Assembly (NCBI GenBank): GCA_963762565.1 | Contig: CAVXLD010000003.1 | Location: 864,001-928,000, forward strand | Length of the DNA stretch: 64,000 nt | Origin: an uncultured Verrucomicrobiae bacterium | GTDB lineage: Bacteria > Verrucomicrobiota > Verrucomicrobiia > Chthoniobacterales > JAFAMB01 | Reading direction: 5' to 3' | Shown here: positions 8,132-59,260 of the stretch, piece after piece | How positions within the stretch are numbered: position 1 is the stretch's first letter | Layout: each line of letters begins with the position of its first letter | Program-made: the position numbers and the translations under genes | Notes under the pieces: generated by a model | What the model was told of the DNA's origin: nothing | Database searches by the model: none | The model's input: only the letters and a program-made list of their open reading frames with translations

Positions 8132-8180
8132 GAGAATCCGCCTCCGCAAAGCCTACGGCGCAGCGCGTTCATCGGCCAGA

Positions 8181-8486
8181 TCACGGCCTCGCTGTTTTCC
8201 TCGAACGCCGCGAGACTCCCGCCGACAGGTCGTCATCTTCAAGCCCGTCTGCCAAAGTACCTTGGAGTGATTCGGCTTCGGCTATCGCGTCCGGGTCACT
8301 AGCCATCTCCCGAAAGCTTTCCTCCAGGCTCAGTTTCTCGGACCTGATCGGGCGCAACAAGAGTCCTTCGGCGGTTTCTACCAATTGAACTTCATCCTTG
8401 ATTCCGTAGCGCTTAATGATGCTGCTGGGGATGCGGATACCCCTGGAATTGCCAATCGCTACCATCTTGAGAATCTCGGACGCCAT
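8181..8486 (-). CDS. AbrB/MazE family antitoxin
   Basis: IGNSRGIRIP motif, upstream of the PemK toxin. Confidence 0.9.
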   Translation of the reverse strand: MASEILKMVAIGNSRGIRIPSSIIKRYGIKDEVQLVETAEGLLLRPIRSEKLSLEESFREMASDPDAIAEAESLQGTLADGLEDDDLSAGVSRRSRKTARP

Positions 8487-8664
8487 GTAGGTACCGTAAT
8501 TACGCTGGGTGGAATTGCAAGCCTCTCGATTATCACCACTCCCTCAATCCATCAAGAAAGCCGAACCGCAGGGCGACCTAAGGGCAAGAGGGCACAGTCT
8601 GCTCGTGTAATCCATTGTCCAGAACCGCCCCTCCCGTTCGTCGTGTTTGTAAATCAATTAAGCC

Positions 8665-9348
8665 ATGAAAACCACTGCTCTCCCACCAATCGTGTCCGCA
8701 GAAGAATGGGCTGTTGCCCGGGAAAGACTGCTCGTTAAAGAAAAAGCCGCGACCCGAGCCCACGACGCGCTGGCGGCCGAACGCCGGCGTTTACCGATGG
8801 TCCTGATCGATAAACAATATTTTTTCGAAGGTCCGAACGGGAGAACGAGCCTGGTTGATCTTTTTGACGGGAAACAGCAACTCCTCCTGTATCATTTCAT
8901 GTTTGCTCCCGGGGTCCATGGGTGGCCTGATGCCGGTTGCCCCGGTTGTTCAATGTTTGTCGATCAGGTCGGACACCAAGCGCATTTTCACGCCAGAAAT
9001 GTCAATTTTGTTCTGGTGTCGCACGCACCGCTCCCTCAGCTCCAAGCTTATCAGAAGCGAATGGGGTGGACCCTCCCTTGGTTCTCCTCTTACGGCAGCG
9101 ATTTTAATCGCGATTTCGCTGTCACCACCCCTGAAGGCGAAGGATTCGGCCTCAGTATCTTCCTCAGAGATGAGGAGAACGTCTATCGCACTTATTTTAT
9201 TGACGGGCGTGGCGTTGATGCGCTGGGGAGTGTTTGGAGTTTCCTCGATCTAACCCCCTACGGCCGGCAAGAAACCTGGGAAAATTCCCCAGCCGGCTGG
9301 CCGCAAACTCCGCCCTACACCTGGTGGCGCCGGCACGATGAATACTAA
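8665..9348 (+). CDS. DUF899 thioredoxin-like protein
   Basis: ALAAERRRLPMV, GCPGCS, LDLTPYGRQETWE, WWRRHDEY. Confidence 0.92.
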   Translation: MKTTALPPIVSAEEWAVARERLLVKEKAATRAHDALAAERRRLPMVLIDKQYFFEGPNGRTSLVDLFDGKQQLLLYHFMFAPGVHGWPDAGCPGCSMFVDQVGHQAHFHARNVNFVLVSHAPLPQLQAYQKRMGWTLPWFSSYGSDFNRDFAVTTPEGEGFGLSIFLRDEENVYRTYFIDGRGVDALGSVWSFLDLTPYGRQETWENSPAGWPQTPPYTWWRRHDEY

Positions 9349-9481
9349 CCGCGAATGGACGCGAATTGATTCGAAGAAAGACCTCAACCGCAGCCCCGGA
9401 GAATTTCGGGGCTGCGGTTGAGGTCTTTCTTCGAGTCTTTCGTGTCCATTCGCGGTTTTAGTTTCGCGTCCATTCGCGGTT
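9347..9481. repeat. Nested palindromic element filling the gap between convergent genes
   Basis: Outer AACCGCGAATGGACGCGAA / TTCGCGTCCATTCGCGGTT; inner perfect 28-bp stem 9371-9398 / 9407-9434. Confidence 0.9.
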
Positions 9482-9846
9482 CAGATCCAGACATCGTTCT
9501 GCGCGGTGCGATCGCCGCCGGTGTCGCCGGTGTTAAGGACGCCGCGTGGCTCGATTAGCATGAGCCTTACCTCTTTTGCTGCGTAGGGCTTATGCTCGAC
9601 TCCTTTCGGAACCACGAACAGTTCTCCGGCCCCGATCTGCACTGCGCCGTCCCGGAAATCGATCCGTAAATCGCCCTCCAGCACCAGGAATGTCTCGTCA
9701 GTTTCTTTATGTGAATGCCAGATGAACTCCCCTTCCAGCTTCACAACTTTGAACTGATAGTCGTTCATCTCGGCGATGACTCTGGGCGCCCATTGCTCCG
9801 TCAAAAGCCCAAGTTTTTGCCGAAGATTGATCGATTGATATTTCAT
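9481..9846 (-). CDS. Cupin domain protein
   Basis: FIWHSHKETDETFLVLEG...VVPKGVEHKP. Confidence 0.92.
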   Translation of the reverse strand: MKYQSINLRQKLGLLTEQWAPRVIAEMNDYQFKVVKLEGEFIWHSHKETDETFLVLEGDLRIDFRDGAVQIGAGELFVVPKGVEHKPYAAKEVRLMLIEPRGVLNTGDTGGDRTAQNDVWI

Positions 9847-10008
9847 CGGTTAAAGAAATTGCACCACAAAGTACGAGGCCGGCCAGCGAATGCATCCGCT
9901 TTCGCCAATCCAAAAGCAAACCACCCAACACGCCGAACAGCTTCCTCGGCCAAGCTGCGAATGAGACGTCGAAGCAACACAGATCGAGAGGAACAAAAAC
10001 GTAATCTG

Positions 10009-10198
10009 AACCGCAGATTAACGGAGAAAGACATTAATTATCCGCAGATTTCGCGTTGGGCTTCGGTCGCGCACCGGACCAAGAGTAGCACCCGGACCTG
10101 GAAACGATTTTTCTCTCCTGGTCAGCCTCAACCTGAAAACGAAATCTGCGTAATCTGCGTAATCTGCGGATAAATAAAATCTGTGTTCATCTGCGGTT
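10009..10198. repeat. CGCAGA-unit inverted-repeat element (family D)
   Basis: AACCGCAGAT...ATCCGCAGATT left; AATCTGCGTAATCTGCGTAATCTGCGGAT...ATCTGCGGTT right. Confidence 0.85.
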
Positions 10199-10245
10199 GA
10201 GGGTCCCTATCCGCGGGTAACAGTCTTTCTTCGTGTCCATTCGTA

Positions 10246-10276
10246 GCCCGTCGCGCCGTAGGCTCGGCGAAGGCGG
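10246..10276 (-). mobile_element. 31-bp micro-element inside a CGAATGGA-type arm
   Basis: Reverse complement CCGCCTTCGCCGAGCCTACGGCGCGACGGGC, flanked by A/A. Confidence 0.7.
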
Positions 10277-10353
10277 ATCCACTCGTGGCCAGGATTGATT
10301 GATCCGTATTCCATCGGATAGGATCGCCCGCCTTAAACACAGATCGATCCTTT

Positions 10354-11031: not shown

Positions 11032-11064
11032 TTTAGGAGCTAGGAGCTAGTAGCTAGGAGAAAG

Positions 11065-11247: not shown

Positions 11248-11277
11248 TTCGCCCCTGGTCAGCCTCAACCTTAAACC

Positions 11278-13632: not shown

Positions 13633-13906
13633 TACGCTCAACAACTTTCCGCCCCTTCGACGGGGCGACGCGCATAGCCTGCCCGACGAAGCTTTACCTC
13701 GTCGGTTGGCAGTTCTATCAGTGAGCGAAGTCGGCAGGACGATTAAGACCAACTCTGGTGCCGCGATTGGAGGATTCCGGGGCACGTGACGTTGCGTGTC
13801 GAGCATTCCGGGCGCCGCCTCCTTGATCAACCCATAGATCTGCTAAACTATCCCGCAGGCGCGGGACGGCTACCCTCCAAAGAACCCACAAACCGCGCCC
13901 AATGCT

Positions 13907-16454: not shown

Positions 16455-16502
16455 CGCCCATTGTTAGGCTGAGACCCCTCAAGATTCAAACCGCGAATGG
16501 AT

Positions 16503-16533
16503 CCGCCTTCGCCGAGCCTACGGCGCGACAGGC
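16503..16533 (+). mobile_element. 31-bp micro-element inside a CGCGAATGGA arm
   Basis: CCGCCTTCGCCGAGCCTACGGCGCGACAGGC flanked by T/T. Confidence 0.7.
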
Positions 16534-16559
16534 TAAAATGAACACGAATAAAAGACTCC

Positions 16560-16774
16560 AACCGCAGATGGACGCAGATAGACGCAGATTTCGGTCTGGA
16601 GCGGGATCTTGTCGCGGGGTACTAGGACCCGCGGCGCTTGGAAACGATGTGTTTATTCTTCCGCGGTGTGCCACACCTTAAAACGAAATCTGCGTAATCT
16701 GCGCAATCTGCGGATCGTTCCTCTTGATTCCGTTCTCTCGCGACGCCACTCAAAATCTGCATCTATCTGCGGTT
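16560..16774. repeat. Family D inverted-repeat element
   Basis: AACCGCAGATGGACGCAGATAGACGCAGATTTCG ... CGAAATCTGCGTAATCTGCGCAATCTGCGGAT...ATCTGCGGTT. Confidence 0.85.
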
Positions 16775-17342: not shown

Positions 17343-17442
17343 CGAAATCTGCGTAATCTGCGGATATTTTTTCTTCATTCCGTTCTCTAGTGACGCCACC
17401 CCAAATCTGTGGTTCGGTGGGCCCGAGCTGACATCTGCGGTT
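17343..17442. repeat. Solo family D right arm; direct repeat of 16684-16774
   Basis: Shares CGAAATCTGCG...ATTCCGTTCTCT...GACGCCAC...AAATCTG...ATCTGCGGTT. Confidence 0.8.
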
Positions 17443-17447
17443 TAGTC

Positions 17448-17669
17448 ATGGACAATCAGGCTTACGACTTAGTGGTGATTGGTGGCGGTCCTGCGGGAGC
17501 GGCTGCCGCGTGGCGTGCAACCCTGTTTGGGAAACACGTTGCTTTGGTTGAAAAAAAGGAAAACTTGGGTGGCGCCGGCATCAATACTGGCACGATCCCA
17601 AGCAAAACCCTGCGAGAAACCGCCCTTGCCTTAACCGGTTGGCGGTCCCGGGAGCTGTTCGGTGATTAG
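17448..17669 (+). pseudogene. N-terminal fragment of a soluble pyridine nucleotide transhydrogenase (SthA-like)
   Basis: YDLVVIGGGPAG...GGAGINTGTIPSKTLRETAL; stops after 73 aa. Confidence 0.8.
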
Positions 17670-17720
17670 TGGAAGCGGCGCGGCACCTTGTCCCTGAGGG
17701 TACGGTGTCATCCCTGCCTT

Positions 17721-18761
17721 CTAGTTCGGCCGGATATCAACGACGTATACACGACCCTCGAAACTCTCATTACCGGTCAGAGAAGTAGCCATTATATAAG
17801 CGCGGCGCCCATCCGGCGCTGCCGCGACCGCTTGGGGAGCCTGAACGTTGATCTGATTACCGGCAATTTCATTGGAAACAGTGTTAACCATCAAGACATC
17901 GTCTGCACCGGTAAACGGCTCATAAAGAAACTTACCATCGAGGGTAATGCCAGGTTGGCCCTGGTAACCCCCGCTGTAGGGCATGGCAATCCTTCCAATC
18001 ATTTGATTGGTGTTAGTATCAACCACCCAGATCGACCGCCGGGTGTTAATAAAGAGTTTGTTTCCCTTTGGGCTCATGGTTAGGAAGCCAGGGATCGCAC
18101 GGCGTGCTTTCAGCGGTAGTTGGATGGTTGTGGTTACCTGTTCGTTGGCTAAGTTGATTACAAAAATATCATGCTCTGAGATTAAGTAACCAAAGTTACC
18201 GTTAGGCGTTATCACGATCTCATCACCGCCGGCTTTGATTGCGTTCGGTATTAATTGATTGTTGGCCGTATCAATAATGGAGACGGAATTTTGGAAGGGA
18301 GTACAGACGTAGATCTTCTTTCCATCCGGGCTCGCTGTCAGCCCCATCGGGAGTGAGACCGACAGAGTCGTCGTGACCGTGCCCGAGACGGTCGACACGA
18401 CATAAACGGTGGAATCGTTCGCCGCATAAAGAGCTTTTCCATCGGATGTTATTGTCAAAGCATGCGGCTCACTGCCGATCGTTATCCTGGATTTCACCGT
18501 ATTCGTCGCGGTGTTTATCACCGTGACCATACCGTTGGTGTTTGTGAAATCAGTTACGTAGACCGATTCGCCATCGGGACTTACTACCATACCGGTTGGA
18601 TAAACGTTGGATCCCAAAGGAATGGTCGCGACGATACGGTTTACCGGAACTCCGGCTTCTGCGGCCAGAGACCGGCTGGTTAGTTCTTGAGCGAATCCAG
18701 GGTCCAGAGTCGACCAAACAACCAGGCCGGCAAAAAGGACAACTCTACAGCGGAGGATCAT
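17721..18761 (-). CDS. Secreted YVTN/YncE-type beta-propeller protein
   Basis: ATG overlaps the coxG stop (ATGA); signal peptide; SPDG..YV..VTVINTATNTV blades. Confidence 0.88.
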   Translation of the reverse strand: MILRCRVVLFAGLVVWSTLDPGFAQELTSRSLAAEAGVPVNRIVATIPLGSNVYPTGMVVSPDGESVYVTDFTNTNGMVTVINTATNTVKSRITIGSEPHALTITSDGKALYAANDSTVYVVSTVSGTVTTTLSVSLPMGLTASPDGKKIYVCTPFQNSVSIIDTANNQLIPNAIKAGGDEIVITPNGNFGYLISEHDIFVINLANEQVTTTIQLPLKARRAIPGFLTMSPKGNKLFINTRRSIWVVDTNTNQMIGRIAMPYSGGYQGQPGITLDGKFLYEPFTGADDVLMVNTVSNEIAGNQINVQAPQAVAAAPDGRRAYIMATSLTGNESFEGRVYVVDIRPN

Positions 18762-19201
18762 TTTGATTCTTCCATCTGGTAGCCGATCTTCCGCAAAAAA
18801 TCTTGCAGCATCTTTTTGCCCGCGGCTTCCACCAGCCGTGACCCCACGGCAGCGATCAAGCCGCCGACTTGGCCATCGGCGTCGCATTGGAGTTCGCTTC
18901 CTTCGCCCTTTGGGGTGATTTGAATTTTCGCGGTTCCTTTCACCCACCCCGGGGCGCCGTTACCTTCCGCTTGAAGCGTGAATGATTCCGGCGGTCTTTT
19001 CTCGGAGATACGGACTTTGCCGGTGTAATTTCCTTTTATACCGGCAACACCGATTCTCAGTTTAGCATCGTAGCTATCTTCTCCGGTCTTCTCCATTTGC
19101 TCGCATCCCTCGATGCATTTCTGGAGAACAGCGGGATCGACGAGCGCTGTGAATAGTTTCTCGGGTGGGGCCTTATATTCGTATGTCGCCTGAATCTTCA
19201 T
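18758..19201 (-). CDS. coxG: CoxG/SRPBCC accessory protein
   Basis: DPAVLQKCIEGCE...VGGLIAAVGSRLV; last gene of the cox cluster. Confidence 0.88.
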   Translation of the reverse strand: MKIQATYEYKAPPEKLFTALVDPAVLQKCIEGCEQMEKTGEDSYDAKLRIGVAGIKGNYTGKVRISEKRPPESFTLQAEGNGAPGWVKGTAKIQITPKGEGSELQCDADGQVGGLIAAVGSRLVEAAGKKMLQDFLRKIGYQMEESK

Positions 19202-19220
19202 CCCATTCCGAAGCCGAAAA

Positions 19221-19500
19221 GATCCACAGATTACTCCGATTACACAGATTTCGTTTAGGATCGAGAAACAAAAGCTTTTAACCGCAGATGGACACAGATT
19301 GACGCAGATTAGGTTTAAGTGTCTGATCGCCCCTGTGAGCGGAGGCGCACGAAAGAGAGCGGCTGTTCAACAAACAGGTGAAGTCGAAACTCGAAGCGTA
19401 ATCTGCGTAATCTGCGGATATTTTATCTTCACCTGCGTCCATTTGCGGTTGTTCGACTTGCCTTAACTCTGTGTCTCTGTGGTGAAATTCTCTGCGGATC
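19221..19500. repeat. Composite family D element between coxM and coxG
   Basis: GATCCACAGATTAC..., AACCGCAGATGGACACAGAT / AATCTGCGTAATCTGCGGAT, CATTTGCGGTT, CTGCGGATC. Confidence 0.8.
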
Positions 19501-19523
19501 GTAAATTTCGGTTTTGATTTTAG

Positions 19524-20369
19524 TTATCCCCGGCTCACGGCAGCCCACAGCGCTCGTTTGGCTTGTACGCGCGCAAGATGCGCCCGGAAATCTGCCGATG
19601 CGTGAATGTCCGAGAGCGGATCGATCCCGTCTGCCGCTTTCTCAGCCGCGGCTGCAATCGAGTCGGCAGTTGGCTCCTGCCCCCGAAGCAACGACTCGGT
19701 CCCTTTTGCCCGATAAGCCTTGGCCGCAACTCCAGTGACTGCCACTGCAACCTCCTTCTTGTTCCTGTCCAAAATGGCGGCTACCCCGGCAATGGCAAAC
19801 CCGCTCGCCTTCTGGGCAAACTTCACGTATGCGGCCGTGCTGGCTGTAGCCGGCACATGGATGAATTTTAGAATCTCATTCGGTCCGACCGCCGAGGTCA
19901 AAATATCCACGAAGAAATCCTTCGCCGCGACCGTCCGGGTCCCGTTGGGGCCTGCGATCTCGAACTCCGCGTCGAGCGCCAGCATCGCGGCGGGCCAATC
20001 ACCCGCCGGATCCGCATGAACACAACTCCCACCGATGGTCCCTTTGTTGCGGACCTGCACATCGCCGATCTTCCCGGCTACTTCGGGGAGTAACGGACAG
20101 GATCCCTTGAGCAAGTCGGATGACTCGATTTCGTAATGGGTCGTTAATGCGCCGATCGCAATCGTCCCATTTTGTCGGCTGACCGAACGCAGGTCAGCGA
20201 TCCGGCCAATATCGATGAGGACCTTCGGTTGTGACAACCGGAGCTTCATCGCCGGAATCAAGCTATGGCCTCCTGCGAGTATTTTCGCGTCATCGCCATG
20301 TTTAGCCAGCAGATCGAGCGCTTCGTCCAGGCTGGAAGCCCTCACATAATCAAATGCGGCCGGGATCAT
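19524..20369 (-). CDS. coxM: FAD-binding medium subunit, CO dehydrogenase/xanthine dehydrogenase family
   Basis: MIPAAFDY, LAGGHSLIP, VRNKGTIGGS, HADPAGD. Confidence 0.9.
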   Translation of the reverse strand: MIPAAFDYVRASSLDEALDLLAKHGDDAKILAGGHSLIPAMKLRLSQPKVLIDIGRIADLRSVSRQNGTIAIGALTTHYEIESSDLLKGSCPLLPEVAGKIGDVQVRNKGTIGGSCVHADPAGDWPAAMLALDAEFEIAGPNGTRTVAAKDFFVDILTSAVGPNEILKFIHVPATASTAAYVKFAQKASGFAIAGVAAILDRNKKEVAVAVTGVAAKAYRAKGTESLLRGQEPTADSIAAAAEKAADGIDPLSDIHASADFRAHLARVQAKRALWAAVSRG

Positions 20370-22732
20370 AAGGCACCCCCTTTCTCTTGGATTGCCCGCC
20401 ACACCCGTTCAGGTGTGAATGGCAAATCCAGGTGAAGAATCCCTAGTGGCGAAAGCGCATCGATCACCCCGTTCCCAATACAAGGTGTCGCACCGATCGT
20501 TCCGGCTTCGCCCACCCCTTTCACGCCAAGCAGATTTGAAGGTGACGGTGTCTCCGTGCTGCCCAGCGCGTACTCCGGTATATCCAAAGCGCGCGGTATC
20601 GCGTAATCCATGAATTCACCGGTTAATAATTGGCCGTTCTCGTCGTACACCGTTCGTTCCATCAGCACTGCGCCGAGGGATTGAGCGATGCCGCCTTGTA
20701 CCTGGCCCTCAATGAGCAGCGGGTTCACCTGTTTACCGCAATCATCGACCGCAGTGTATTTCAGGATCTTGACCTGACCGGTCTCGCGATCCACTTCCAC
20801 CGCACAGATATGGGTCCCGAACGGGAACGTACAGTTAGGCGGTTCGAAGAAACTGGATGCCTCAAGTCCCGGCTCAAACCCAGGAGGCAGATTCTTCGCG
20901 ACGTAGGCCTCGCTGGCCAGCTGACCCCAACCGATATTCTTCGCTTCGCTGCCGCGCACGAAGAACTTACCGTCGGCGAACTCGATGTCAGCCGGCGCCG
21001 CCTCCAAAAGCGCAGCCGCTAATGTCTTGGTTTTCTCGATAATCTTATCGATCGACATCGCGATCGCCGTCCCGCCGAGCGCGGTCGCCCGGCTGCCATA
21101 AGTGTCCCGGCCGAAATGCGCGGTAGCAGTGTCTCCACGCAGAACGACGACATCCTCAATCGGAATCCCTAGTCGATCGGCTGCGATTTGAGCGAAACTC
21201 GTCTCTTGGCCTTGTCCATGCGGCGTTGCCCCGGTAATCACCGTTACTTTTCCGGAGATCTCGATCCTCACACAGCCCCATTCCCAGCCTCCTGCGGCCA
21301 TGATCTTCGAAGGACCGAGGGCGCAGATCTCAACGTATGTCGAGATACCGATCCCGAACAGCCGACCCTCCGCGCGGGCATTTTCACGCTCTTTCAACAA
21401 TCGCGGCCATTGGGCTAGTCCCTTCGCCTTCTCCAGCGCCGCCTGATAGTTGCCGCTATCGTACTGTAGTCCGGTAATGGTCGTGAACGGGAACTCTTCC
21501 GGACCGGGCATGTTCTTTAGCCGGATCTCTATCGGATCTAGACCGAGCTCGTCGGCCACATAGTCCATGACTCGCTCGATGATATAGGTTGCCTCTGGCC
21601 GGCCGGCGCCACGATAAGCATCGGCTGACATCTTATTGGTGTGAACCCCGGTGATGTCGACCTTGACCGCTTTGAGCTTGTAACAACCGCCAATCATCAA
21701 GCCGGTAAGCGTGGGGATCGCCGGAGTGAGCAACTGCAGATAAGAACCGATATCGGCGATGATCTTCGATCGGATCGCTAAAACCGAACCGTCGTTCTTA
21801 ACCGCAACCTCGTGATCTCCGATCTGGTCCCGTCCGTGGATCGTAACCGCAGCGTTTTCCCGCCGGCCCTCGATCCATTTGATCGGCCGCTGTAGGCGCA
21901 TCGCCAGATGGCTGACCACGGCTTCTTCTGAGTAAAGATTGAGCTTGGACCCGAATCCGCCGCCAACCTCGGGGGCGACCACGCGCAGCTTATTCTCCGG
22001 AATACCGATCATTCCGGGTAACAGTGTCCGGATCAGATGCGGGATCTGGGTTGATGTCCACAAGGTGAGCGTTTGCTCACCCGAATGCCAGGAGGCCGCG
22101 CAGCCGCGCGGCTCAAGCGCCATCGGCGTCAGGCGCTGATGAAGAATCCGGAGCTTAAGGACCCGATCCGCCTCTTTGAAAGCAGCGTCGAGGTCGCCAC
22201 CCGCCAGACCCCAGGTAAAGGCCACGTTAGTCCCGAGGTCGGGATGGGTCAGCGGCGCATCTGTTTCTAACGCCTTCTCCGGATCAACCACCGCCGGCAA
22301 CGGCTCGTAATCGACTTCGACCAGTTCCAGAGCATCTCGCGCAATCGTTCGCGTCTTGGCCACAATCACGGCAACCGGATGGCCCACAAAATAAACTCGG
22401 GAGCTGGCTAACACCGTATGCACCGGCGATTTCCCACCGGGTAATGGGGTGGCACACGGAATCGTTCCTGCTTTCTCGTTTATATCGGCTCCGGTAAACA
22501 CGCCGATAACGCCGGGGAGATTCTTAGCAGCCTCGGTATTTATGGACTTGATGTTCGCATTGGCGTGCGGGCTCCGGACGAACTCGGCATGGACTACTCC
22601 TGCAAGCTGTAAATCATCAACATAGGTCGCCTCGCCTTTGAGCAGCCGCGGGTCTTCTACCCGCTTCATTGCCCGCCCAAAATATTTCGGGGAAGACTTT
22701 GTTAGAGGGGGTTTCTCGGTGGTAGTGGACAT
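20366..22732 (-). CDS. coxL: Molybdopterin large subunit, form II CoxL-like
   Basis: VGGGFGSK, AYRGAGRPEA active-site loop, HGQGQET, KGVGEAG. Confidence 0.9.
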   Translation of the reverse strand: MSTTTEKPPLTKSSPKYFGRAMKRVEDPRLLKGEATYVDDLQLAGVVHAEFVRSPHANANIKSINTEAAKNLPGVIGVFTGADINEKAGTIPCATPLPGGKSPVHTVLASSRVYFVGHPVAVIVAKTRTIARDALELVEVDYEPLPAVVDPEKALETDAPLTHPDLGTNVAFTWGLAGGDLDAAFKEADRVLKLRILHQRLTPMALEPRGCAASWHSGEQTLTLWTSTQIPHLIRTLLPGMIGIPENKLRVVAPEVGGGFGSKLNLYSEEAVVSHLAMRLQRPIKWIEGRRENAAVTIHGRDQIGDHEVAVKNDGSVLAIRSKIIADIGSYLQLLTPAIPTLTGLMIGGCYKLKAVKVDITGVHTNKMSADAYRGAGRPEATYIIERVMDYVADELGLDPIEIRLKNMPGPEEFPFTTITGLQYDSGNYQAALEKAKGLAQWPRLLKERENARAEGRLFGIGISTYVEICALGPSKIMAAGGWEWGCVRIEISGKVTVITGATPHGQGQETSFAQIAADRLGIPIEDVVVLRGDTATAHFGRDTYGSRATALGGTAIAMSIDKIIEKTKTLAAALLEAAPADIEFADGKFFVRGSEAKNIGWGQLASEAYVAKNLPPGFEPGLEASSFFEPPNCTFPFGTHICAVEVDRETGQVKILKYTAVDDCGKQVNPLLIEGQVQGGIAQSLGAVLMERTVYDENGQLLTGEFMDYAIPRALDIPEYALGSTETPSPSNLLGVKGVGEAGTIGATPCIGNGVIDALSPLGILHLDLPFTPERVWRAIQEKGGAL

Positions 22733-23296: not shown

Positions 23297-23562
23297 GGAG
23301 TTCAGGAGTTGCAGGAGTTCGAGGCGGAGGCCGTGGAGCGCTGCCTCGCTTGCGAGGCCGTCGGGACCAAGGGAGAACTCTTATGGCGCGACCGCATCAT
23401 TGTCTGCGCTCTAGATCGGTCTGTCTGCCTTTTCACCCCCGCAGCAGTCCCGCCGGACAATGCGTCAGGCCTCGCCCTCACCTTCGGTCACAACGGCCTC
23501 GCAAGCGAGGCAACGCTCCACGCGTTCGCGCCTCCTTGAACTCCTGCAACTCCTTGAACTCC
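23297..23562. repeat. Family A REPIN-like element (23331-23522) nested in GGAGTTCA/TGAACTCC arms
   Basis: GTGGAGCGCTGCCTCGCTTGCGAGGCCG ... CGGCCTCGCAAGCGAGGCAACGCTCCAC. Confidence 0.88.
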
Positions 23563-25004: not shown

Positions 25005-25342
25005 TTTGGTGGGGCGAGGCTCCCGAACGGCCCGGGGCTGCCCTCAACGAGGGCGATCGATTTCTGCCGCTGGAAGCCCGCGCCGACAGACGTGCCGAGC
25101 CGCCGACCCCTGATGTGCCACCGACAAAACGCGAGGCCGTAGGATAGATCGAGTAGCGCATCTTGGCATAGCACGTGGCAACGAAATTAGCCCTGGGCCT
25201 TTCGCGGCTCGGCACGTCTCTCGGCGTTGCCCACGATTCATTACGACCAGTCAGAACCGTGGCGAAAGATAACCGGTCGTTCGGGAGCCTCGCCCCACCT
25301 AAGACCCCTTTCGGCCTCGCAAGCGAGGCAACGCTCCACGGG
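24969..25342. repeat. Family A element enclosing a family B element (25008-25299)
   Basis: A arms 24971-24998 / 25312-25339; B arms GGTGGGGCGAGGCTCCCGAACG / CGTTCGGGAGCCTCGCCCCACC. Confidence 0.9.
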
Positions 25343-25419
25343 CGTCCCTCTGTCACGGAACGTTCTCCCATCCGGTCTTCGGTCCGGAAACCATTCACTC
25401 CTTGAACTCCTGCAACTCC

Positions 25420-25450
25420 CCGACTCCGCGAAGCCTACGTCGCGGCTGGC
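25420..25450 (+). mobile_element. 31-bp micro-element inside an AACTCC tract
   Basis: CCGACTCCGCGAAGCCTACGTCGCGGCTGGC flanked by C/C; removal restores CAACTCCTTGAACTCC. Confidence 0.7.
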
Positions 25451-28011: not shown

Positions 28012-28320
28012 CGTCCCGAAGGGACTGAACGAGCGTAGCCTGGCAATTTGTTGCCAGGAACCCGTCCTATAGCGGACCCGTCGCGTAATGGGGCTTCGGT
28101 CCCGAAGGGACAATAGGACTCAGCCTGGGGTTTTAACCCCAGGAAAACGTCCACACATGAGGCCGCCCTGAAGGGGCGGAAGACGATTGTGATCGACGAG
28201 CCGGATTGACCGACGTCTGCAAATGTGGGCAGCGAATTTACCGTCTCTTCGGGGCGGGCATTTTTCAACTCGGTACCTCGGATTAAAACCCCGGGCTTAG
28301 TGCTGTTGACCCTTCGGGAC
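28012..28320. repeat. Cluster of short REP-like hairpins (GTCCCGAAGGGAC type)
   Basis: GTCCCGAAGGGAC twice, CCTGGCAA-TT-TGTTGCCAGG, CCTGGGGTTTTAACCCCAGG, GCCCTGAAGGGGC, CCCTTCGGGAC. Confidence 0.75.
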
Positions 28321-29583: not shown

Positions 29584-29744
29584 AACCACAGAACCTGTCG
29601 CGCCGCAGGCTTTGCGGAGGCGGATGTATGCAGATAGAGATCTCCGATCGAGATTTTGCTACGCCATATCTGCGTGAATCTGCGGCCGTTTTGCGGTTGG
29701 ACTTTTTCTCTTTCCTTTGTGTCCTTCGTGTCTTTGTGGTGAAA
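29584..29744. repeat. Family D element carrying a 31-bp micro-element (29593-29623), plus a CACAAAG-type arm
   Basis: AACCACAGA[insert]ATGTATGCAGAT ... ATCTGCGTGAATCTGCGG...GCGGTT. Confidence 0.8.
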
Positions 29745-30573: not shown

Positions 30574-30970
30574 ACCGCAGATGAAAGGAGATGGAAATAT
30601 CCGCAGAGCGGACACTAAAGACAGTTAAATATCCGCAGATTACACAGATTACACAGATTACACAGATTACGTTTTGGGGCTCCGATGGTGCTGGGGCTCA
30701 TGCGAAGATCGGCACCCAACGGTGACTTCTGTCAAAAAAAATGCTTTTCTGCTTTATAGCCTTTTGCTTTTCGAGGACAGGGAAAAGCCGAGCCCCTAGT
30801 AGCGACTTATTTAACTGCGGCGCATGCCCGACTGCCGAACGTAATCTGCGTAATCTGTGTAATCTGCGGATATTAACTTCTCTCTGTAATCTGCGGATAA
30901 ACCGTTCTTCCTCGCGCTACGGATCGTCTAATGGTCAGGTCTTTGTGAACTCTGTATCTTTGTGGTGAAA
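30539..30970. repeat. Composite family D element between deoR and pfkB
   Basis: ATCCGCAGATTACACAGATTACACAGATTACACAGATTACG / CGTAATCTGCGTAATCTGTGTAATCTGCGGAT. Confidence 0.85.
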
Positions 30971-32904: not shown

Positions 32905-33313
32905 GGAGCTAGGAGCTAGATCTAGGAGCTAGGAGGGACGCAGCGGCGGGTATCGTCCTCGTTCTCGTCGTCGTCCTCGAAATCGGCTCTATCGCTTGTT
33001 TGGAACTGAGACCGCGCCATGCCCAATGGCGCGGTAGAGCTATTTCAAGGCAGTCCCGTTTATGCATCTCTGCGGGCTACGGCTTTCGCGACCCGCAACG
33101 GGGTAGCCGGCCCAGGGGACTCCATACCTTCAAAATCGAGGACAGCCTGTCCGACGAAGCCCACGCTCTATTTTGCCAACCGCTCGAAGTCGGCCTCGCA
33201 AGCGAGGCGCGCTCCACAACCAGGAACTTAGCGAAGTCGGAAGGACGACGACGAGAACGATTACGAAGTGCTAGCACGCGCTTACTAGCTCCTAGATTCT
33301 AAATTCTAGCTCC
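32905..33313. repeat. Three-layer nested element: (GGAGCTA)n arms, family K arms, solo family A arm
   Basis: GGAGCTAGGAGCTAG / CTAGCTCC; TCGTCGTCGTCCTCGA / GGACGACGACGAGAACGA; A arm at 33191-33217. Confidence 0.8.
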
Positions 33314-33503: not shown

Positions 33504-33560
33504 GCCGTTCGGGAGCCCGCCTACGCCAAGCCTACGGCGCGGCAGGCCCTCGCCCCACCA
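33504..33560. repeat. Solo family B arm interrupted by the 31-bp micro-element (33517-33547)
   Basis: CGTTCGGGAGC[insert]CCTCGCCCCACC versus intact CGTTCGGGAGCCTCGCCCCACC at 25278. Confidence 0.8.
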
Positions 33561-38593: not shown

Positions 38594-38840
38594 CCGCGAA
38601 TGAATCCGACTTCGCCAAACCCTGACCTAACCACACTGTCGAGCGCATGCTTCGTCGGACAGGCTACGAATAGACGCGAAACCAAAAAAATCTAAACCGC
38701 AGATGTACGCAGATTTCTATGAAGACAAAATCCGCCACAGAAGATCACAAAGGTCATAAAGAAGGAATTAGGTTTAATCAGGCTCTGAAATCCTATCTTT
38801 GTGATCTTCTGTTGGTTCCACTCCCGAACTCCTGAACTCC
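38592..38840. repeat. Composite CRCRRA-arm element with an expanded micro-element (38606-38664)
   Basis: AACCGCGAATGAAT[CCGACTTCGCCAA...GTCGGACAGGC]TACGAATAGACGCGAA; CAGAAGATCACAAAG / CTTTGTGATCTTCTG. Confidence 0.8.
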
Positions 38841-38852
38841 TACCTTCTTCCG

Positions 38853-41201
38853 ATGTCTCCTTCTGATTATCTCGAACGCGTTTACGCCGGTGTACTCGGC
38901 AAGATCATTGGCGTTTATCTCGGACGGCCGTTTGAAGGGTGGAAGCACCAACGGATTTTGTCGGAGCTTGGGGAGATCTGGGATTACCAACATGAACGGT
39001 TGGGTGTGCCATTGGTAGTCGCTGATGACGATATTTCTGGCACATTTACTTTTTTGCGTGCGTTACCGGACCACGGTGGCAGCGCTGAGCTGACCGCCGC
39101 ACAGATCGGTCAAGCCTGGCTCAACTATATTGTCGAGAACCGGAGTATCCTCTGGTGGGGCGGTATGGGTAACTCGACGGAGCACACCGCTTTTCTGAGA
39201 TTAAAGGGCGGAATTTCGGCGCCGAAAAGCGGTGCGATTGCCACCAACGGTAAGACCGTGGCTGAACAGATTGGCGCCCAGATCTTTATTGATGGTTGGG
39301 CTTTAGTCGCTCCCGGCAACCCGCGCTTGGCCGCAGAGCTCGCTGGGAAAGCAGGTTCAGTGAGCCATGACGGTGAAGCGGTTTATGCAGCTCAGTTAGT
39401 GGCAGCGATGGAAGCACAAGCCTTCGTAGAACCCAGCATCGATCAGCTGATCGAGACCGGCCTAAAATATCTTCCGTCCAACTGTTTGATTGCCCAATTA
39501 GTAAACGATGTCCGTAATTGGCATCGGGAGGATGGTGATTGGAGAGTAACCCGGGGACGGATCGAACAAAAATACGGGTACGATAAGTTTCCCGGTAACT
39601 GTCACGTAGTTCCCAACCATGCGATCATCATCCTGAGTTTGCTTTATTCTGAGGATAATTTTGGTCGGGCCCTCATGATCGCGAACACATCTGGTTGGGA
39701 CACCGACTGTAACTCGGGTAACGTCGGCTGTCTGATCGGTATAAAGAACGGGTTAGCCGGGATCGACCCAAAACTGCGTGAAGCCGTTGCCGACCGTCTC
39801 TATCTGTCTACCGCCGATGGCGGCCGCTGTATTACGGATGCGGTTCGTGAGACGTATGAGATCTGCCGTATGGCAGATCGACTCGGCCAAGCGCCCTCCA
39901 TCCCGAGTCCCAAGAACGGCGCTCGTTTTCATTTCTCGCTCCCCGGTTCTGTTCAGGGCTTCCAATGTGGAGCGCGCCTCGCTTGCGAGGCCGACTCGGT
40001 CGGAACCGATTCCGTCGGGGCGGCAACCGCCCGCCTTGAGAACGTCGCGCTGACAGATACTGGTGTCTCTTCTATCGGCCTCGCAAGCGAGGCGCGCTCC
40101 ACGGGTGTCTCTTCTATCGGCCTCGCAAGCGAGGCGCGCTCCACGGGTGTCTCTTCTATCGGCCGCGCAAGCGAGGCACGCTCCACGGGTGTCTCTTCTA
40201 TCGGCCTCGCAAGCGAGGCACGCTCCACGGGTGTCTCTTCTATCGGCCTCGCAAGCGAGGCGCGCTCCACGGAGGCCGCTGCACGGGTGCTCGCCCTCGA
40301 TTTTAATCTTTCGCCGGGCGGTCCTCCAGCCACCATCGCGACTCCAACCTTCATCCCGCCTGATTCAAAAGATGCCAGTCACTATTGTTTGATGGCGTGC
40401 CCGACGCTTCACCCAGGAAACATTGTCACGGGTCGCGTGATCGCTGACCTTGCAAATTCGCGCCCGATCCGTGTCACTCCGTTCGTGACCTACTATGGAA
40501 ACAACGACGAGTTGAACGATCACCATGGTCCGTCGTTCACTCTCGACTTTGGCCGCACCCAAGATTTCCAATGGCAGATCGAAGACCTGGACGGTGCACC
40601 TATAGCCCAGTTCGGACTTGAGGTTAGCGCCGACGGCGCCGCTAAAGGCCGCTTATTCATCGATTACATCGACTGGTCAGGAACACCCACAACCACGTTT
40701 CGACGTCCAACGAGCAACAGCAAAATGTGGCTCCGTGCCTGGGTCAATGCCGTCGATCATGCCGGCACCCGCTGGGCATCAGCATTTCATCTCTCTCAAA
40801 ACAGCGGGACCGGCCTGCTCATTCAAGGCTCACGCGATTGGCAAAACTATGCCGTTCAATCCGCGATTATTTCGGACCCGGCCCAATCCTTTGGACTAGC
40901 CGCCCGGGTCCAAGGGTTATCTAGATACTACGCCCTCTTACTTGGCCCGAACCAGATATTGCGCCTAGTCCGGAATTACGATGGGATCGAGGTGTTAGCA
41001 GAGGTTCCGTATAGCTGGCGCTGGTCAGAGCGATATCAGTTCAATCTTGCGGTGAACGGAACTGAGATCGTAGGTTCCCTGAGTGGAACTCCATTAATTC
41101 GCTACAACGACACCGGTTCAGCCCTCCTCGATGGCGGAGTCGCCTTGGTGTGCGAAGAGGGCTTGATCATGACCGACGAAGTCACCGTTACCGGAGCTTA
41201 A
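38853..41201 (+). CDS. ADP-ribosylglycohydrolase family protein with a long C-terminal region and a repeat-derived insert
   Basis: GVLGKIIGVYLGRPFEG, DDDIS, SHDGE, GWDTDCN. Confidence 0.9.
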   Translation: MSPSDYLERVYAGVLGKIIGVYLGRPFEGWKHQRILSELGEIWDYQHERLGVPLVVADDDISGTFTFLRALPDHGGSAELTAAQIGQAWLNYIVENRSILWWGGMGNSTEHTAFLRLKGGISAPKSGAIATNGKTVAEQIGAQIFIDGWALVAPGNPRLAAELAGKAGSVSHDGEAVYAAQLVAAMEAQAFVEPSIDQLIETGLKYLPSNCLIAQLVNDVRNWHREDGDWRVTRGRIEQKYGYDKFPGNCHVVPNHAIIILSLLYSEDNFGRALMIANTSGWDTDCNSGNVGCLIGIKNGLAGIDPKLREAVADRLYLSTADGGRCITDAVRETYEICRMADRLGQAPSIPSPKNGARFHFSLPGSVQGFQCGARLACEADSVGTDSVGAATARLENVALTDTGVSSIGLASEARSTGVSSIGLASEARSTGVSSIGRASEARSTGVSSIGLASEARSTGVSSIGLASEARSTEAAARVLALDFNLSPGGPPATIATPTFIPPDSKDASHYCLMACPTLHPGNIVTGRVIADLANSRPIRVTPFVTYYGNNDELNDHHGPSFTLDFGRTQDFQWQIEDLDGAPIAQFGLEVSADGAAKGRLFIDYIDWSGTPTTTFRRPTSNSKMWLRAWVNAVDHAGTRWASAFHLSQNSGTGLLIQGSRDWQNYAVQSAIISDPAQSFGLAARVQGLSRYYALLLGPNQILRLVRNYDGIEVLAEVPYSWRWSERYQFNLAVNGTEIVGSLSGTPLIRYNDTGSALLDGGVALVCEEGLIMTDEVTVTGA
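39967..40271. repeat. In-frame family A element; right arm amplified as 5 x 42-bp tandem repeats (40062-40271)
   Basis: Left GTGGAGCGCGCCTCGCTTGCGAGGCCG; unit GGTGTCTCTTCTATCGGCCTCGCAAGCGAGGCGCGCTCCACG encodes GVSSIGLASEARST. Confidence 0.95.
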
Positions 41202-45678: not shown

Positions 45679-45964
45679 CCTGGAGGGGAGCCGCTTTGGA
45701 GTGTAACCAAGCGACCCCACGATATTCGTATCGGCGCGTGCATGATCACAAATCCTTTTAAACAGGCGGCTCCCGGGAACGTTCCAATGCGTGTTAGGTT
45801 TGTCGCTCCGTTGAGCAGTGAAGAATCTCCAAGCACAACGATGGACAAAACGCCGCGTGCGGTAATTCCCGGGAGCCGCCTGTTTAACACCCTATTTAGT
45901 CTGCCTCGCACTGGAAAGAATTTCGCGAGATCTTTGGGTCCGACCCAAAGCGGCTCCCCTCCGG
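45679..45964. mobile_element. Family C element, copy 3
   Basis: CCTGGAGGGGAGCCGCTTTGG / CCAAAGCGGCTCCCCTCCGG; inner AAACAGGCGGCTCCCGGGAA / TTCCCGGGAGCCGCCTGTTT. Confidence 0.88.
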
Positions 45965-55312: not shown

Positions 55313-55330
55313 AATCGATCGATTAGATTA

Positions 55331-56588: not shown

Positions 56589-56677
56589 ATGTAAATGATT
56601 GCGGTCGAAAAACTTATCAGAGAAAGCCGGGAATGGGCCAGCAAAGAATTAACAGAAGAAAACGAAGAACAGAAAAT

Positions 56678-56922
56678 CCCACACAAGGGCACAAAGACAC
56701 TAAGAAACGGAAACTTTAACAAGAGGGCCGCAAAGGTAGCAAAGACCGAGTTTTAGCAGACTCTGATGTGAGGTTAGCCATTCAAAAGCTAGTCCACCCG
56801 TCGCGCCTATTGTGGAAGCCTAACGTGCGAATCCCAAATCACCAATCGTTCATTTCTTTGCGGCCTTTGTGGCCTTCCTGTTAAATTTTCTGTCTCTTAG
56901 TGTCTTTGTGCTTTTGTGTGAG
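56678..56922. repeat. Family I element (CACAAAG arms)
   Basis: CACACAAGGGCACAAAGACACTAAGA...GGCCGCAAAG / CTTTGCGGCC...TCTTAGTGTCTTTGTGCTTTTGTGTG. Confidence 0.85.
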
Positions 56923-56936
56923 ATACGGCAGTTAAA

Positions 56937-57278
56937 ATGAAAACCATCCCAATTTTCCTCGCTTTTATGTCTTTGTTCGTTGCAGGCGCCAAGGCTGGCG
57001 CCCAGGAACGTCTGGCAGCGTGCCGTCAGCAAATTGATTCGATTGATCAGCGCTTAGTGGACCTAATCCAGGAACGCGCTCGCGTAGTCCAGGAGGTTGG
57101 CGCCATTAAACAAGAAGCACACCTTCAGGTAACCGATACCAGCCGGGAACAAGCCGTGATCCAGAACGCGGAAGCCCTAGCAAAAGATGGCCCGCTACCA
57201 GCCGAAGCCGTTGGCCGTATCTATCAAAAACTCGTTGAAGAGATGCGCAATTGGGAAGCGGGCCTGACTAAGAAGTAA
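56937..57278 (+). CDS. Chorismate mutase (AroQ class) with a predicted signal peptide
   Basis: LAACRQQIDSIDQRLVDLIQERA...VGAIK...DTSREQAV. Confidence 0.85.
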   Translation: MKTIPIFLAFMSLFVAGAKAGAQERLAACRQQIDSIDQRLVDLIQERARVVQEVGAIKQEAHLQVTDTSREQAVIQNAEALAKDGPLPAEAVGRIYQKLVEEMRNWEAGLTKK

Positions 57279-57287
57279 TGGAGTAGT

Positions 57288-57497
57288 TGGTAGGGCGAGG
57301 CTCCGGAAAGAGCCACGACGGTCGCAGGGTCGAGTGACGCCTCGTCGGTATATTAGGTTCAACTTCTACGCGCGGCCGAGCCGTGGGTTACGCGGGCCCC
57401 CGGCTCGGCAGCGTTCAGGTGTTGCATCCCATATTTTGGCGAAACGCTATCTCGCTCTGCGACTTCTTTCCGACCATTCTGGAGCCTCGCCCTACCA
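57288..57497. repeat. Family B REPIN-like element with GTAG ends
   Basis: TGGTAGGGCGAGGCTCCGGAA / TTCTGGAGCCTCGCCCTACCA. Confidence 0.85.
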
Positions 57498-57526
57498 CTC
57501 CTTGAACTCCTTGATTATATTTCCAC

Positions 57527-58000
57527 ATGAGCACTACCTCCGTTTCACCTCGCATGGAGCAACCGAAAGTGAACCAGCTGCTGGGCCCGGCATTGAAGAG
57601 CCTCTACGATATCGAAGGGCATCTGCGAAAATCGACGCTCGAGCCTGAGCTGCGGGAATTGATAAAATTGCGAGTCTCCCAGATCAATGGATGTGCTTAC
57701 TGCATCATTTATCATCGCCGCGACGCGCTGAAGCTGGGGGTCGCTGAACGAAGAATCCATCTGCTTAATGCCTGGAGGGAAGCATCCGATTCCGAATATT
57801 CGGAGCGAGAACGCGCCGCCTTAGCCTGGGCGGAAGCGGTGACGTTAATCTCTCTGCATCATTTGCCCGATGAAGTCTACGCTGAAGCCGCCCGCGTTTT
57901 CTCCGAACAGGAACTGGTTGATCTTAACCTGGCCGTGATGAGTATCAATGCGTGGAACCGTCTTTCCATCGCGTTCCGATACGAGCCCGACCGCGACTAG
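57527..58000 (+). CDS. Carboxymuconolactone decarboxylase/AhpD family protein
   Basis: LRVSQINGCAYC...YSERERAALAWAEAVT...INAWNRL. Confidence 0.93.
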   Translation: MSTTSVSPRMEQPKVNQLLGPALKSLYDIEGHLRKSTLEPELRELIKLRVSQINGCAYCIIYHRRDALKLGVAERRIHLLNAWREASDSEYSERERAALAWAEAVTLISLHHLPDEVYAEAARVFSEQELVDLNLAVMSINAWNRLSIAFRYEPDRD

Positions 58001-58004
58001 GATC

Positions 58005-58270
58005 CACCACAGAGACACAGAGGGATATTCACCACAAAGGCACAAAGGACACAAAGACAGAAAATTTGACAGGAAGGCCGCAAAGGCCACCAAGACGGAT
58101 CCTTATTCAGAAGCAAAGGGAGACAACCAAGGGGAAAAGTGTCAGCGGAGCGTCAAGATTGCTTTTCTTAAACCTTAGTTGCCTTCTCCTCAAAGAAATC
58201 TGGCTTTGCGGCCTTTGTGCCCTTCCTGTGACATTTTCTGTCTTCGCGTGCTTTGTGTCTTTGTGGTGAA
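58005..58270. repeat. Family I element
   Basis: CACCACAAAGGCACAAAGGACACAAAGACAGAAAAT...CAGGAAGG / CCTTCCTG...ATTTTCTGTCTT...CTTTGTGTCTTTGTGGTG. Confidence 0.85.
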
Positions 58271-58389
58271 ATTTGCCTTTTGCGCCGAGGGACAAACTCG
58301 GCGAAATTCGGGAGTATCCCCCAGTCCGTTTCCCCTGCTTTGCTCGACCTAAATGGGCTGAAGGAAAGTAACGTTCACCTGGAGGTAAT

Positions 58390-59223
58390 ATGAGCCAGAA
58401 TCTCACCCTGCTCCGGCAGAATTACTGCCGGTCCGTCGTGGTGGATGGTCCACCCGATTTCTTTCCGCTGGAAAGAGAATCCGAACAAGGAAAAGCAGTC
58501 TTGGCGAAAAAGCCGACTAAAGTTCAGCAATGGCAAAGGTTTAATCCACACGGGCTTTTGCAAATTTATCGAGACCAGCAAAGCGGCGCTGAACTTCCTG
58601 TGTTTGCGGTATTCAACCTGGGAGGCACTAACCGTCTGACCGCCGAAGTCACCATGACTTCCGTCTCTGCAGACAGTGAGCCTGGGGACCTAACCAGTTT
58701 TCTTCCATTCGGCAGAAGCCAGGAATTTGTGAAGAGAATCAATGCGGCCAGAATGCGGGCTGAACGGATTGCGTTTAAGGTATCCGCGCTGATTGGAATC
58801 GCCGGCTTGCTAGCCTTTTTTTTGTCGCATAATCCAGGCGTTAAACCAGCCGCGCTACCGTTCCTAGTGATAGGAGTATGGAGCCTGGGCACATTTCTCT
58901 CTTATCTAATCGCCGAGTTTCTGCTTAACCGATTTTATCCTTGGAAGAAATTGATCTTAACTGCCGAGTTCGATGGCATTCTACCGAGCTCGACCCGCGA
59001 GATTGCGCTGGCCGCAAAACACCGGTTCAATAACCTCTACCTGATTGTAGATCAGCAGAAGCGTTGGCAGAGCACACTTCTACGGGATCCCGTACCACGC
59101 GCCCTCGATCCTCTGCTAATTGGAGAACTTAAGCATGGCAGCCGACGCCGCTTTTTCTTGTTAGATCAATTTGATCTGACCGCAGCCGAACAGTATCTGG
59201 CGGACGAATTTGCGACCAAATAG
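58390..59223 (+). CDS. Membrane hypothetical protein (two TM)
   Basis: GGAGG ribosome site before ATG; 277-aa ORF with two hydrophobic segments. Confidence 0.7.
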   Translation: MSQNLTLLRQNYCRSVVVDGPPDFFPLERESEQGKAVLAKKPTKVQQWQRFNPHGLLQIYRDQQSGAELPVFAVFNLGGTNRLTAEVTMTSVSADSEPGDLTSFLPFGRSQEFVKRINAARMRAERIAFKVSALIGIAGLLAFFLSHNPGVKPAALPFLVIGVWSLGTFLSYLIAEFLLNRFYPWKKLILTAEFDGILPSSTREIALAAKHRFNNLYLIVDQQKRWQSTLLRDPVPRALDPLLIGELKHGSRRRFFLLDQFDLTAAEQYLADEFATK

Positions 59224-59231
59224 CCGCGAAA

Positions 59232-59260
59232 ACTTGTCGCGCCGTAGCTTGCGAAGGCGG
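59232..59260 (-). mobile_element. 29-bp variant of the micro-element
   Basis: Reverse complement CCGCCTTCGCAAGCTACGGCGCGACAAGT, flanked by A/A inside a CGCGAA/CACAAA arm. Confidence 0.65.

Follow-up and report, generated by a model that had tools for sequence, protein, structure and literature searches.

How can a hairpin repeat little more than 30 nt long come to lie inside several unrelated larger repeats, with the same pyrimidine on either side of it? The question is raised by a stretch of 64,000 nt from an uncultured verrucomicrobial genome (hereafter the window), for which an earlier note, made from the letters alone, had proposed an independently mobile 31-bp unit that duplicates one base pair of its target. 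We call this repeat E. It proves to be a genuine family of tiny hairpin repeats that extends across the Planctomycetes-Verrucomicrobia-Chlamydiae (PVC) group, of the same kind as the repetitive extragenic palindromes (REPs), the inverted REP pairs known as REPINs, and the small dispersed repeats (SDRs) of cyanobacteria. E is placed discretely into intergenic repeats, namely tandem arrays, the loops of hairpin modules and other members of its own family. The reading that we favour, with slightly better than even confidence, is that of a REP- or SDR-like, non-autonomous repeat that is set down as a discrete 32-nt block and moved in trans.

Copies, anatomy and host sites

The copies of E stand clear of the rest of the window in each search made for them. 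The 31-mer typed out earlier matched 3 sites at up to 3 mismatches and none in 100 shuffles, an nhmmer profile gave 7 sites with E-values of 1e-5 or less (the next best being 0.12), and a covariance model run with its filters off returned 7 short copies at 33.9-52.7 bits, a gap of about 21 bits above the next candidate at 12.5 bits. Profile and covariance model agree on the sites, which are 8138(+), 10246(-), 16503(+), 25420(+), 29593(-), 33517(+) and 59232(-) and which serve as names below. Three further copies are loop-expanded, at 38606-38664(+), 33145-33240(-) and 13677-13734(-); in all three, 30-70 nt of unrelated sequence separate the ends CCGACTTCGC...GCTTCGTCGGRCAGGC, and the loop of E tolerates further insertions. 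The family therefore has 10 members in 64 kb, all of them intergenic, in divergent, convergent and co-directional spacers alike. The earlier note had placed the seven short sites and 38606-38664 correctly; it took the 8138 copy for a partial one, which is really full length with a diverged 3' end, and it missed the other two expanded copies.

The unit is 32 nt long and consists of a pyrimidine at position 0 (the base directly 5' of the earlier 31-mer) followed by CCGNC, a conserved 14-nt loop (TTCGCNRAGCCTAC), GNCG-C-G-R26 and a 5-nt tail, CAGGY. When the window copies are aligned with members of the family in other genomes (44 rows, 43 distinct sequences), these parts form a 6-bp bulged helix in which the bulged C24 separates the pairs Y0:R26 and C1:G25 from those of positions 2-5 with 20-23. 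Pair 4:21 is C:G in 24 of the distinct sequences, A:U in 16, G:C in 2 and something else in 1, while pair 0:26 is C:G in 26, U:A in 14, U:G in 1 and something else in 2. Across the helix 98.4% of the cells are paired, as compared with 14.7-62.2% when the partner columns are slid. Since the pattern used to search the genome collection had N at columns 4 and 21 and left columns 0, 25 and 26 unfixed, these counts were not built in by the search. As a control, 34 of the 35 matches with a Y-CC...G signature, out of 107 listed, pair at 4:21, against a Watson-Crick pair in 16 of the 72 listed matches without the signature, which come from other phyla.

The change from CCGCC/GGCG to CCGAC/GTCG that had been pointed out at 25420 and 38606 is present in both of those copies and also in the two newly found expanded ones. 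A minimum-free-energy fold (3-10/23-31, 14-16/20-22) was considered and rejected, as it shows no compensatory change and leaves half of the cells unpaired at four pairs; we prefer the fold 0-5/20-26 because this alternative lacks covariation. The hairpin element first described is real, then, but it is one base longer than claimed, its pyrimidine Y0 being part of the helix, and it is not quite devoid of terminal inverted repeats, for its 6-bp helix amounts to a short, subterminal one.

That E is independent of any single host repeat is supported by the variety of its hosts. At least three kinds in the window are clearly unrelated to each other, namely 10-mer arrays of the GAATGGAT or AACCRCAGAT type, the CTTGAACTC 9-mer array and the GGTRGGGCGAGGCTCCCGA hairpin module, with the context of the 59232 copy as a further one and at least five contexts in all. 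TCGTCC arrays, a ACGGATTAA array and short hairpin loops are additional hosts in relatives. The unit is not a fixed part of one larger repeat.

Empty counterparts had been named for three copies, and all three were recovered in the window (Table 1). Taking out the unit plus one base leaves TCGGGAGCCTCGCCCC at 33517 and GCAACTCCTTGAACTC at 25420, each with exact 16-mer matches elsewhere, and AACCACAGATGTATGCAGAT at 29593, which belongs to an arm family (AACCRCAGATGNAYRCAGAT) with 8 empty copies at no more than one mismatch. In these three pairs, whose hosts are unrelated to one another, the filled site exceeds its empty paralog by 32 nt. No arm of the AACCRCAGATGNAYRCAGAT family in the window carries an extra base, and junctions that retain both flank bases of 33517 or 25420 do not occur in the window. 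For 10246, 16503, 38606 and 59232 the window holds no exact 12-mer of an empty junction, nor a convincing one when as many as 5 substitutions are allowed; at 10246 and 38606 the period of the 10-mer arrays, read by eye, also points to one extra T. Array periodicity fits a 32-nt insert at two loci of relatives as well (L051 and L045).

E has also entered copies of itself. At L090, a locus of a relative, a subfamily-I copy lies reversed within the loop of a subfamily-II copy; without the inner copy and one T the sequence reads CCCGACTTCGCCAAGCCTACGTCGCGGCC, as is normal for subfamily II, and the outer copy is recognised by the model in spite of its interruption. At L039, also in a relative, two copies stand head to tail as T-E-T-E-T.

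Distribution and doublet forms

The pattern search of the genome collection gave at least 107 matches at no fewer than 105 loci, 72 of the 107 listed being chance matches in other phyla. Among the matches listed, 32 of the 33 loci with the signature come from PVC bacteria, which are Verrucomicrobiota (several MAGs, and including Akkermansiaceae, Chthoniobacterales and Terrimicrobiaceae) and also Kiritimatiellae and Victivallis. The sole non-PVC signature locus listed, L058 from Acidobacteriota, looks like a chance match. Among the same listed matches, at least 11 copies on 8 contigs belong to a single genome, CP_BE_BS_R1_1.

Two subfamilies can be told apart. Subfamily II has CCGAC...GTCG and a tail that is not conserved, and its copies are mostly preceded by GGTAGGGCGAAAAC or a variant of it. 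In relatives, 14 of 16 subfamily-II copies have an inverted related partner (CCGCC.TCGC...GGCGCGCCC) 26-31 nt away, forming a doublet of roughly 100 nt that typically has GGTAGGG or GGTAGG at its outer ends. No such partner accompanies any of the 16 subfamily-I copies in relatives, and a covariance-model search found none near the window copies. The subfamily-II doublet has the architecture of REPINs and the outer tag of GTAG-type REPs. At 2105-2290 of L039 (JAFAIO010000452.1), two loop-expanded copies of about 63 nt are inverted around a short hairpin spacer, and this pair is a doublet form in the window's nearest relative. A different arrangement is seen at 250-548 of L043 (JAFAHI010000277.1), where three tandem units of about 134 nt each hold one copy of E, so that E can also be amplified passively within a longer tandem repeat.

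Mode of spread and the flanking pyrimidine

A further question is how a unit of this size would be moved. In the reading that we favour, E would be non-autonomous, its mobility being supplied in trans. Folded as a single strand, it would be recognised by an enzyme encoded elsewhere in the genome; the REPIN-like relatives and the GTAG tag make a RAYT (REP-associated tyrosine transposase) or IS200-like HUH tyrosine transposase the leading candidate for this role. This enzyme would copy or move E to a place next to a pyrimidine, and some copies would later have spread further within their host repeat.

Several results weigh against this reading. The earlier note had seen no enzyme for E in the window, and we agree: transposase, Y1/RAYT and reverse-transcriptase families have no match among the 53 window open reading frames (ORFs) of at least 120 aa, nor in a permissive re-scan of the 14 of these without a family, nor among 116 of the 240 stop-to-stop frames (at least 110 aa) in the 2-kb flanks of 16 of the 26 loci in relatives. 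IS200/IS605-type elements usually show a replication-strand bias, and the window copies are divided 5 plus to 5 minus, in a stretch with negative GC skew over 15 of its 16 bins. The stability of the hairpin is ordinary, with z-scores of -0.0 to -1.5 against shuffles (-1.7 to +1.0 alone or within hosts), and the covariation may stem from few events, T:A at 0:26 being one subfamily-I lineage and A:T at 4:21 the mark of subfamily II. At L014 and L092, array periodicity fits a 31-nt insert better than a 32-nt one. Filled and empty alleles at orthologous sites, to which the earlier note had looked, were not found, the three window pairs being paralogous. The contig that carries L039 (from 'Verrucomicrobiota bacterium isolate CP_BE_BS_R1_1') is syntenic with window positions 17434-20646, with gene identities of 78-85% over three stretches, and its E-bearing intergenic regions fail to align with those of the window. 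Finally, composites of module A (a hairpin module) plus E, at 33517 and L039, and of GCGAATGGAT plus E are shared by two species without being orthologous in position, which means that some of the copies are owed to the spread of host repeats and not to movement of E.

All 44 copies have a pyrimidine at position 0, and positions -1 and outward are variable. In the window, the same base stands on both flanks of 6 of the 6 complete short copies (four with T/T, two with C/C) and of 2 of the 3 expanded ones, which makes 8 of 9; with each host context counted once the figure is 6 of 7, for which a binomial estimate gives p ~0.01 at a chance rate of ~0.35. A 31-nt element whose enzyme cuts with a one-base stagger, and thereby truly duplicates the target pyrimidine, would produce such flanks, and it would also produce the agreement in 4 of 5 copies at the nearest relative's loci L039, L045 and L092 and a filled site longer by 32 nt rather than 31; the T-E-T-E-T of L039 is as expected from a second insertion at the duplicated T. 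The copy at 13677 departs from this with G/T, however, and the 31-nt fit of L014 and L092 leaves no room for an extra base. When the flanking bases are tabulated beyond the window, they agree in only 12 of 39 copies of relatives (7 of 20 in subfamily I, 4 of these 7 being from the nearest relative, and 5 of 19 in the rest), which is about chance for pyrimidine-rich flanks. The 5' base moreover covaries with position 26 (40 Watson-Crick pairs and 1 wobble among 43), which is unexpected for a target base unless the target is chosen by pairing. The rule that E has the same base on both sides thus holds for most window copies and is at chance level in relatives, and we consider a true duplication unlikely. 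Given the link between positions 0 and 26 and the 32 nt by which filled sites exceed empty ones, the most economical account is a 32-nt unit that starts at Y0 and lies beside a host pyrimidine, and what looked like a 1-bp target duplication is most likely E's own first base plus that host pyrimidine. We give only a slim chance to the idea that E is a guide-directed micro-transposon, in which purine 26 would choose the pyrimidine site by pairing, an enzyme acting on single-stranded DNA would be conserved across the PVC group, and the doublets of Chthoniobacterales would be an alternative mobile form. If so, no smaller element with a target-recognition base of its own would be known.

Spread without any dedicated enzyme, in which template switching by a polymerase or short-patch conversion between intergenic regions rich in repeats would rely on microhomology of 1-2 nt at the donor's flanking pyrimidine, seems to us as improbable as a true duplication. 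It fits the ambiguity of the junctions by 1-2 nt (CC at 33517 and 25420, T elsewhere), an insert that appears to be 31 or 32 nt long, the lack of an enzyme among the window ORFs and the scanned frames of relatives, and the near restriction of insertions to other repeats and hairpin loops, which are sites of fork stalling. Other unrelated micro-modules behave alike, for example the hairpin module B, which occurs within an expanded E and in a 6-unit tandem array. The boundaries of E are nevertheless sharp and identical across unrelated hosts, and the conservation of helix and loop over phylum-level distances suggests a conserved recognising protein. Nor is the similarity of E to its own host raised: over 33 of the 44 aligned copies the mean local score is 5.79 for own and 5.63 for other flanks (permutation p = 0.16), and targeting guided by such resemblance was rejected on these figures. 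Less likely still is that E is a selected cis-acting module, either a protein-binding site or an RNA or DNA signal, whose mosaics arose by recombination and whose "empty" sites reflect precise loss or independent assembly. Strong conservation of core and helix across Verrucomicrobiota, Kiritimatiellae and Victivallis would suit such a role, as would the intergenic position of 10 of 10 window copies, the presence of E in operon spacers (mazE-mazF at 8138, ABC-transporter genes at L045) and the GGAGG in the reverse complement of some copies, which at 8138 lies 8 nt upstream of the likely GTG start of mazF. Against it, neither orientation nor distance to genes is fixed, no T-run follows the hairpin 3', so that it is not a terminator, and a scan against Rfam gave no family at any window copy at an E-value of 1 or less. 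A block of 32 nt within complete copies of three unrelated repeats, and within another E, is also explained more simply by insertion than by assembly.

Surroundings and comparison with known repeats

Table 1. Copies of E and matching empty sites in the window; spans of copies include position 0
Feature	Position	Strand	Context and scores
E, full length, 3' end diverged	8137..8168	+	mazE-mazF spacer; covariance model 34.5 bits; nhmmer E-value 4e-7
E, T-type (T0:A26)	10246..10277	-	in 10-mer array, between GAGTGGAT and TACGAATGGAC; flanks T/T; 49.7 bits
E, loop-expanded, 58 nt	13677..13735	-	flanks G/T, against the flank rule
E, T-type	16502..16533	+	in array, between AACCGCGAATGGAT and TAAAATGAAC; flanks T/T; covariance model 52.0 bits
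E, CCGAC/GTCG subfamily, C-type (C0:G26)	25419..25450	+	in CTTGAACTC 9-mer array; flanks C/C; 49.9 bits
E, T-type	29593..29624	-	in AACCRCAGATGNAYRCAGAT arm; flanks T/T; covariance model 49.6 bits
E, loop-expanded, 96 nt	33145..33241	-	loop holds hairpin module B (GCCTCGCTTGCGAGGC); within TCGTCC array; flanks T/T
E, C-type	33516..33547	+	centre of hairpin module A, between GGTAGGCCGTTCGGGAGC and CTCGCCCCACC; flanks C/C; 52.7 bits
E, loop-expanded	38605..38664	+	ends CCGACTTCGCC...GCTTCGTCGGACAGGC around ~30 nt of other sequence; flanks T/T
E, short 29-nt variant plus T0	59232..59261	-	8 nt past stop of ORF 58390-59223; flanks T/T; 33.9 bits
Empty site, CTTGAACTC array without E (host of 25420)	23546..23561	+	exact 16-mer
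Empty site, module A without E (host of 33517)	25281..25296	+	exact 16-mer; second empty copy 25011-25026(-), matching from 25011(-)
Empty arm, one of 8 (host family of 29593)	38695..38714	+	at most 1 mismatch

The copy at 8137 lies in the spacer of about 47 nt between mazE (8181-8486, minus strand) and mazF/pemK (7808 to about 8131, minus strand). This pair, 7808-8486(-), is apparently intact, with Pfam matches to MazE_antitoxin and PemK_toxin, and the idea that the copy adjoins a truncated toxin gene was rejected.

The window has a G+C content of about 54%, and its genes are ordinary metabolic, transport and regulatory ones. Between the genes it is a mosaic made up of a small number of short modules. 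Arrays of 9-10-mers (CGCAGATTA and relatives, CTTGAACTC, ACAAAGGAC, GAATGGAYAC) and of TCGTCC often form inverted arms; those of the first three kinds occupy many gene boundaries, with arms often 100-200 nt apart, as in 30624-30671 with 30843-30898 and 16547-16590 with 16687-16742. Hairpin module A (GGTRGGGCGAGGCTCCCGAACGG) occurs as inverted pairs. Two such pairs (GGTRGGGCGAGGCTCCMGA), at 25008-25299 and 57289-57496, enclose about 290 and 208 bp and resemble the ends of miniature inverted-repeat transposable elements (MITEs); for the module A copy that hosts E at 33517 no partner was detected. The hairpin of module B (CGGCCTCGCAAGCGAGGCRCGCTCCACGG) is also contained, as GCCTCGCAAGCGAGGC, in each of six tandem 42-nt units at 40017-40314, in frame within ORF 38853-41201, whose only Pfam domain is ADP-ribosylglycohydrolase at residues 13-306. 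The impression is of an array of repeats that either grew inside a coding frame or was fused onto one. A dispersed repeat of about 250 bp, with the internal inverted motif CCCGGGAGCCGCCTGTTTAA, is present at 45713-45962 and 59365-59615, the two copies being 82-84% alike. The Rfam family Acido-Lenti-1 RNA is matched at 28098-28143(-) with 41.2 bits (gathering score 37), with sub-threshold copies at 28012-28058(-) and 59665-59707(+); the pair at 28012-28143 lies within about 1 kb without a recognised gene. At L090, a 58-nt stretch 84% similar to the Acido-Lenti-1 region ends about 40 nt from the nested E copies.

The way in which repeats as small as REPs or SDRs spread is a problem still unsolved. 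The link of REPINs to RAYTs is strong, and their insertion has rarely been caught; to our knowledge no enzyme is known for CGTC-type REPs or for SDRs, and for the latter no transposase. E is unusually clean material in this respect, with sharp 32-nt filled/empty pairs and a covarying helix that reaches its first base, and it offers singlet and doublet forms in related lineages together with conservation over several PVC classes, so that a comparative search for a co-inherited enzyme is feasible. There are practical consequences as well. Nested micro-repeats disrupt intergenic alignments and can produce spurious ORFs, and a copy of E in an operon spacer, such as that of mazE-mazF, could alter expression.

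Among systems that are already known, the IS200/IS605 insertion sequences share with E the lack of long terminal inverted repeats, a hairpin near the ends and no need for a target duplication. IS608 recognises its cleavage site by pairing with a guide, and the flank base of E can likewise pair with an internal base. E differs in having one hairpin instead of one per end, in specifying at most one base (only position 0 is constrained) where these elements have a fixed target of 4-5 nt, in its even strand distribution and in that no TnpA was seen in the scanned frames. Another comparison is with bacterial interspersed mosaic elements (BIMEs), intergenic mosaics in which a handful of short modules, some palindromic and some not, follow one another in different orders. 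The intergenic mosaics of the window are likewise made of a few short modules; BIMEs, however, juxtapose their modules, whereas E sits inside otherwise intact ones for which matching empty sites exist. BIMEs are mentioned by Di Nocera et al. 2013 (PMC3733652), where MITEs are given as 70-300 bp long with terminal inverted repeats of 15-30 bp and target duplications of several bases. E resembles MITEs in being non-coding and non-autonomous, and its loop-expanded copies keep their ends around variable cargo, but it is only 32 nt long, has a helix of 6 bp in place of the long terminal repeats, and shows at most a single duplicated base where MITEs have several.

The SDRs are closer. They were reportedly described by Elhai and co-workers in 2008 with sizes of 21-27 nt and with nesting. 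SDR4-6 resemble E in looking mobile at far below MITE size, in precise insertion into other short repeats and in the presence of several families per genome, and E has what an insertion of this type leaves behind, a unit well under 100 nt with matching empty sites, in the three paralogous 32-nt pairs and the L090 nesting. PMC4390886 places the insertion of SDR5 between the 3rd and 4th bases of HIP1, and SDR-like repeats are reported in PMC5861425 to be absent from HIP1-rich cyanobacteria outside Nostocaceae. SDRs belong to another phylum and are probably unrelated to E in sequence. E spans several PVC classes, and covariation in its helix extends to the first base.

With REPs, E shares a 20-40-nt imperfect palindrome (a 6-bp helix with one bulge and two covarying pairs, at a folding energy no better than that of shuffles), an extragenic, multicopy distribution of 10 members per 64 kb, all between ORFs, and an unpaired tail. 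The terminal tag of REPs (GTAG or CGTC/TGTC/CCTC) is absent from the window copies, which have GTAG only in the reverse-strand loop, CGTC only in the 10246 copy, and YCTGYC as the reverse-strand tail. Other differences are that the helix has only 6 bp and a bulge and that the most conserved part of E is its 14-nt loop. Di Nocera et al. 2013 (PMC3733652) is the one relevant work that came out of literature searches on repeats of this sort in Verrucomicrobia; it reports that the verrucomicrobium Opitutus terrae is rich in GTAG REPs, some of them inside ORFs, and the sections consulted describe neither E nor such nesting. The REPIN, a concept set out in PMC3116915 as an inverted pair of REPs, finds its likeness in subfamily II, where 14 of 16 copies form inverted doublets with a fixed spacer and with GGTAGGG ends that contain the GTAG tag of the main REP superfamily. 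The window copies, in contrast, are singlets, it is on singlets and not on doublets that the insertion signatures lie, and no RAYT gene flanked by E was seen in the 53 window ORFs or the 116 frames from the flanks of relatives. Because the window copies have neither a terminal GTAG/CGTC tag nor an inverted partner, E is not a canonical REP or REPIN. It is a canonical member of neither these nor the SDRs, and it works like both.

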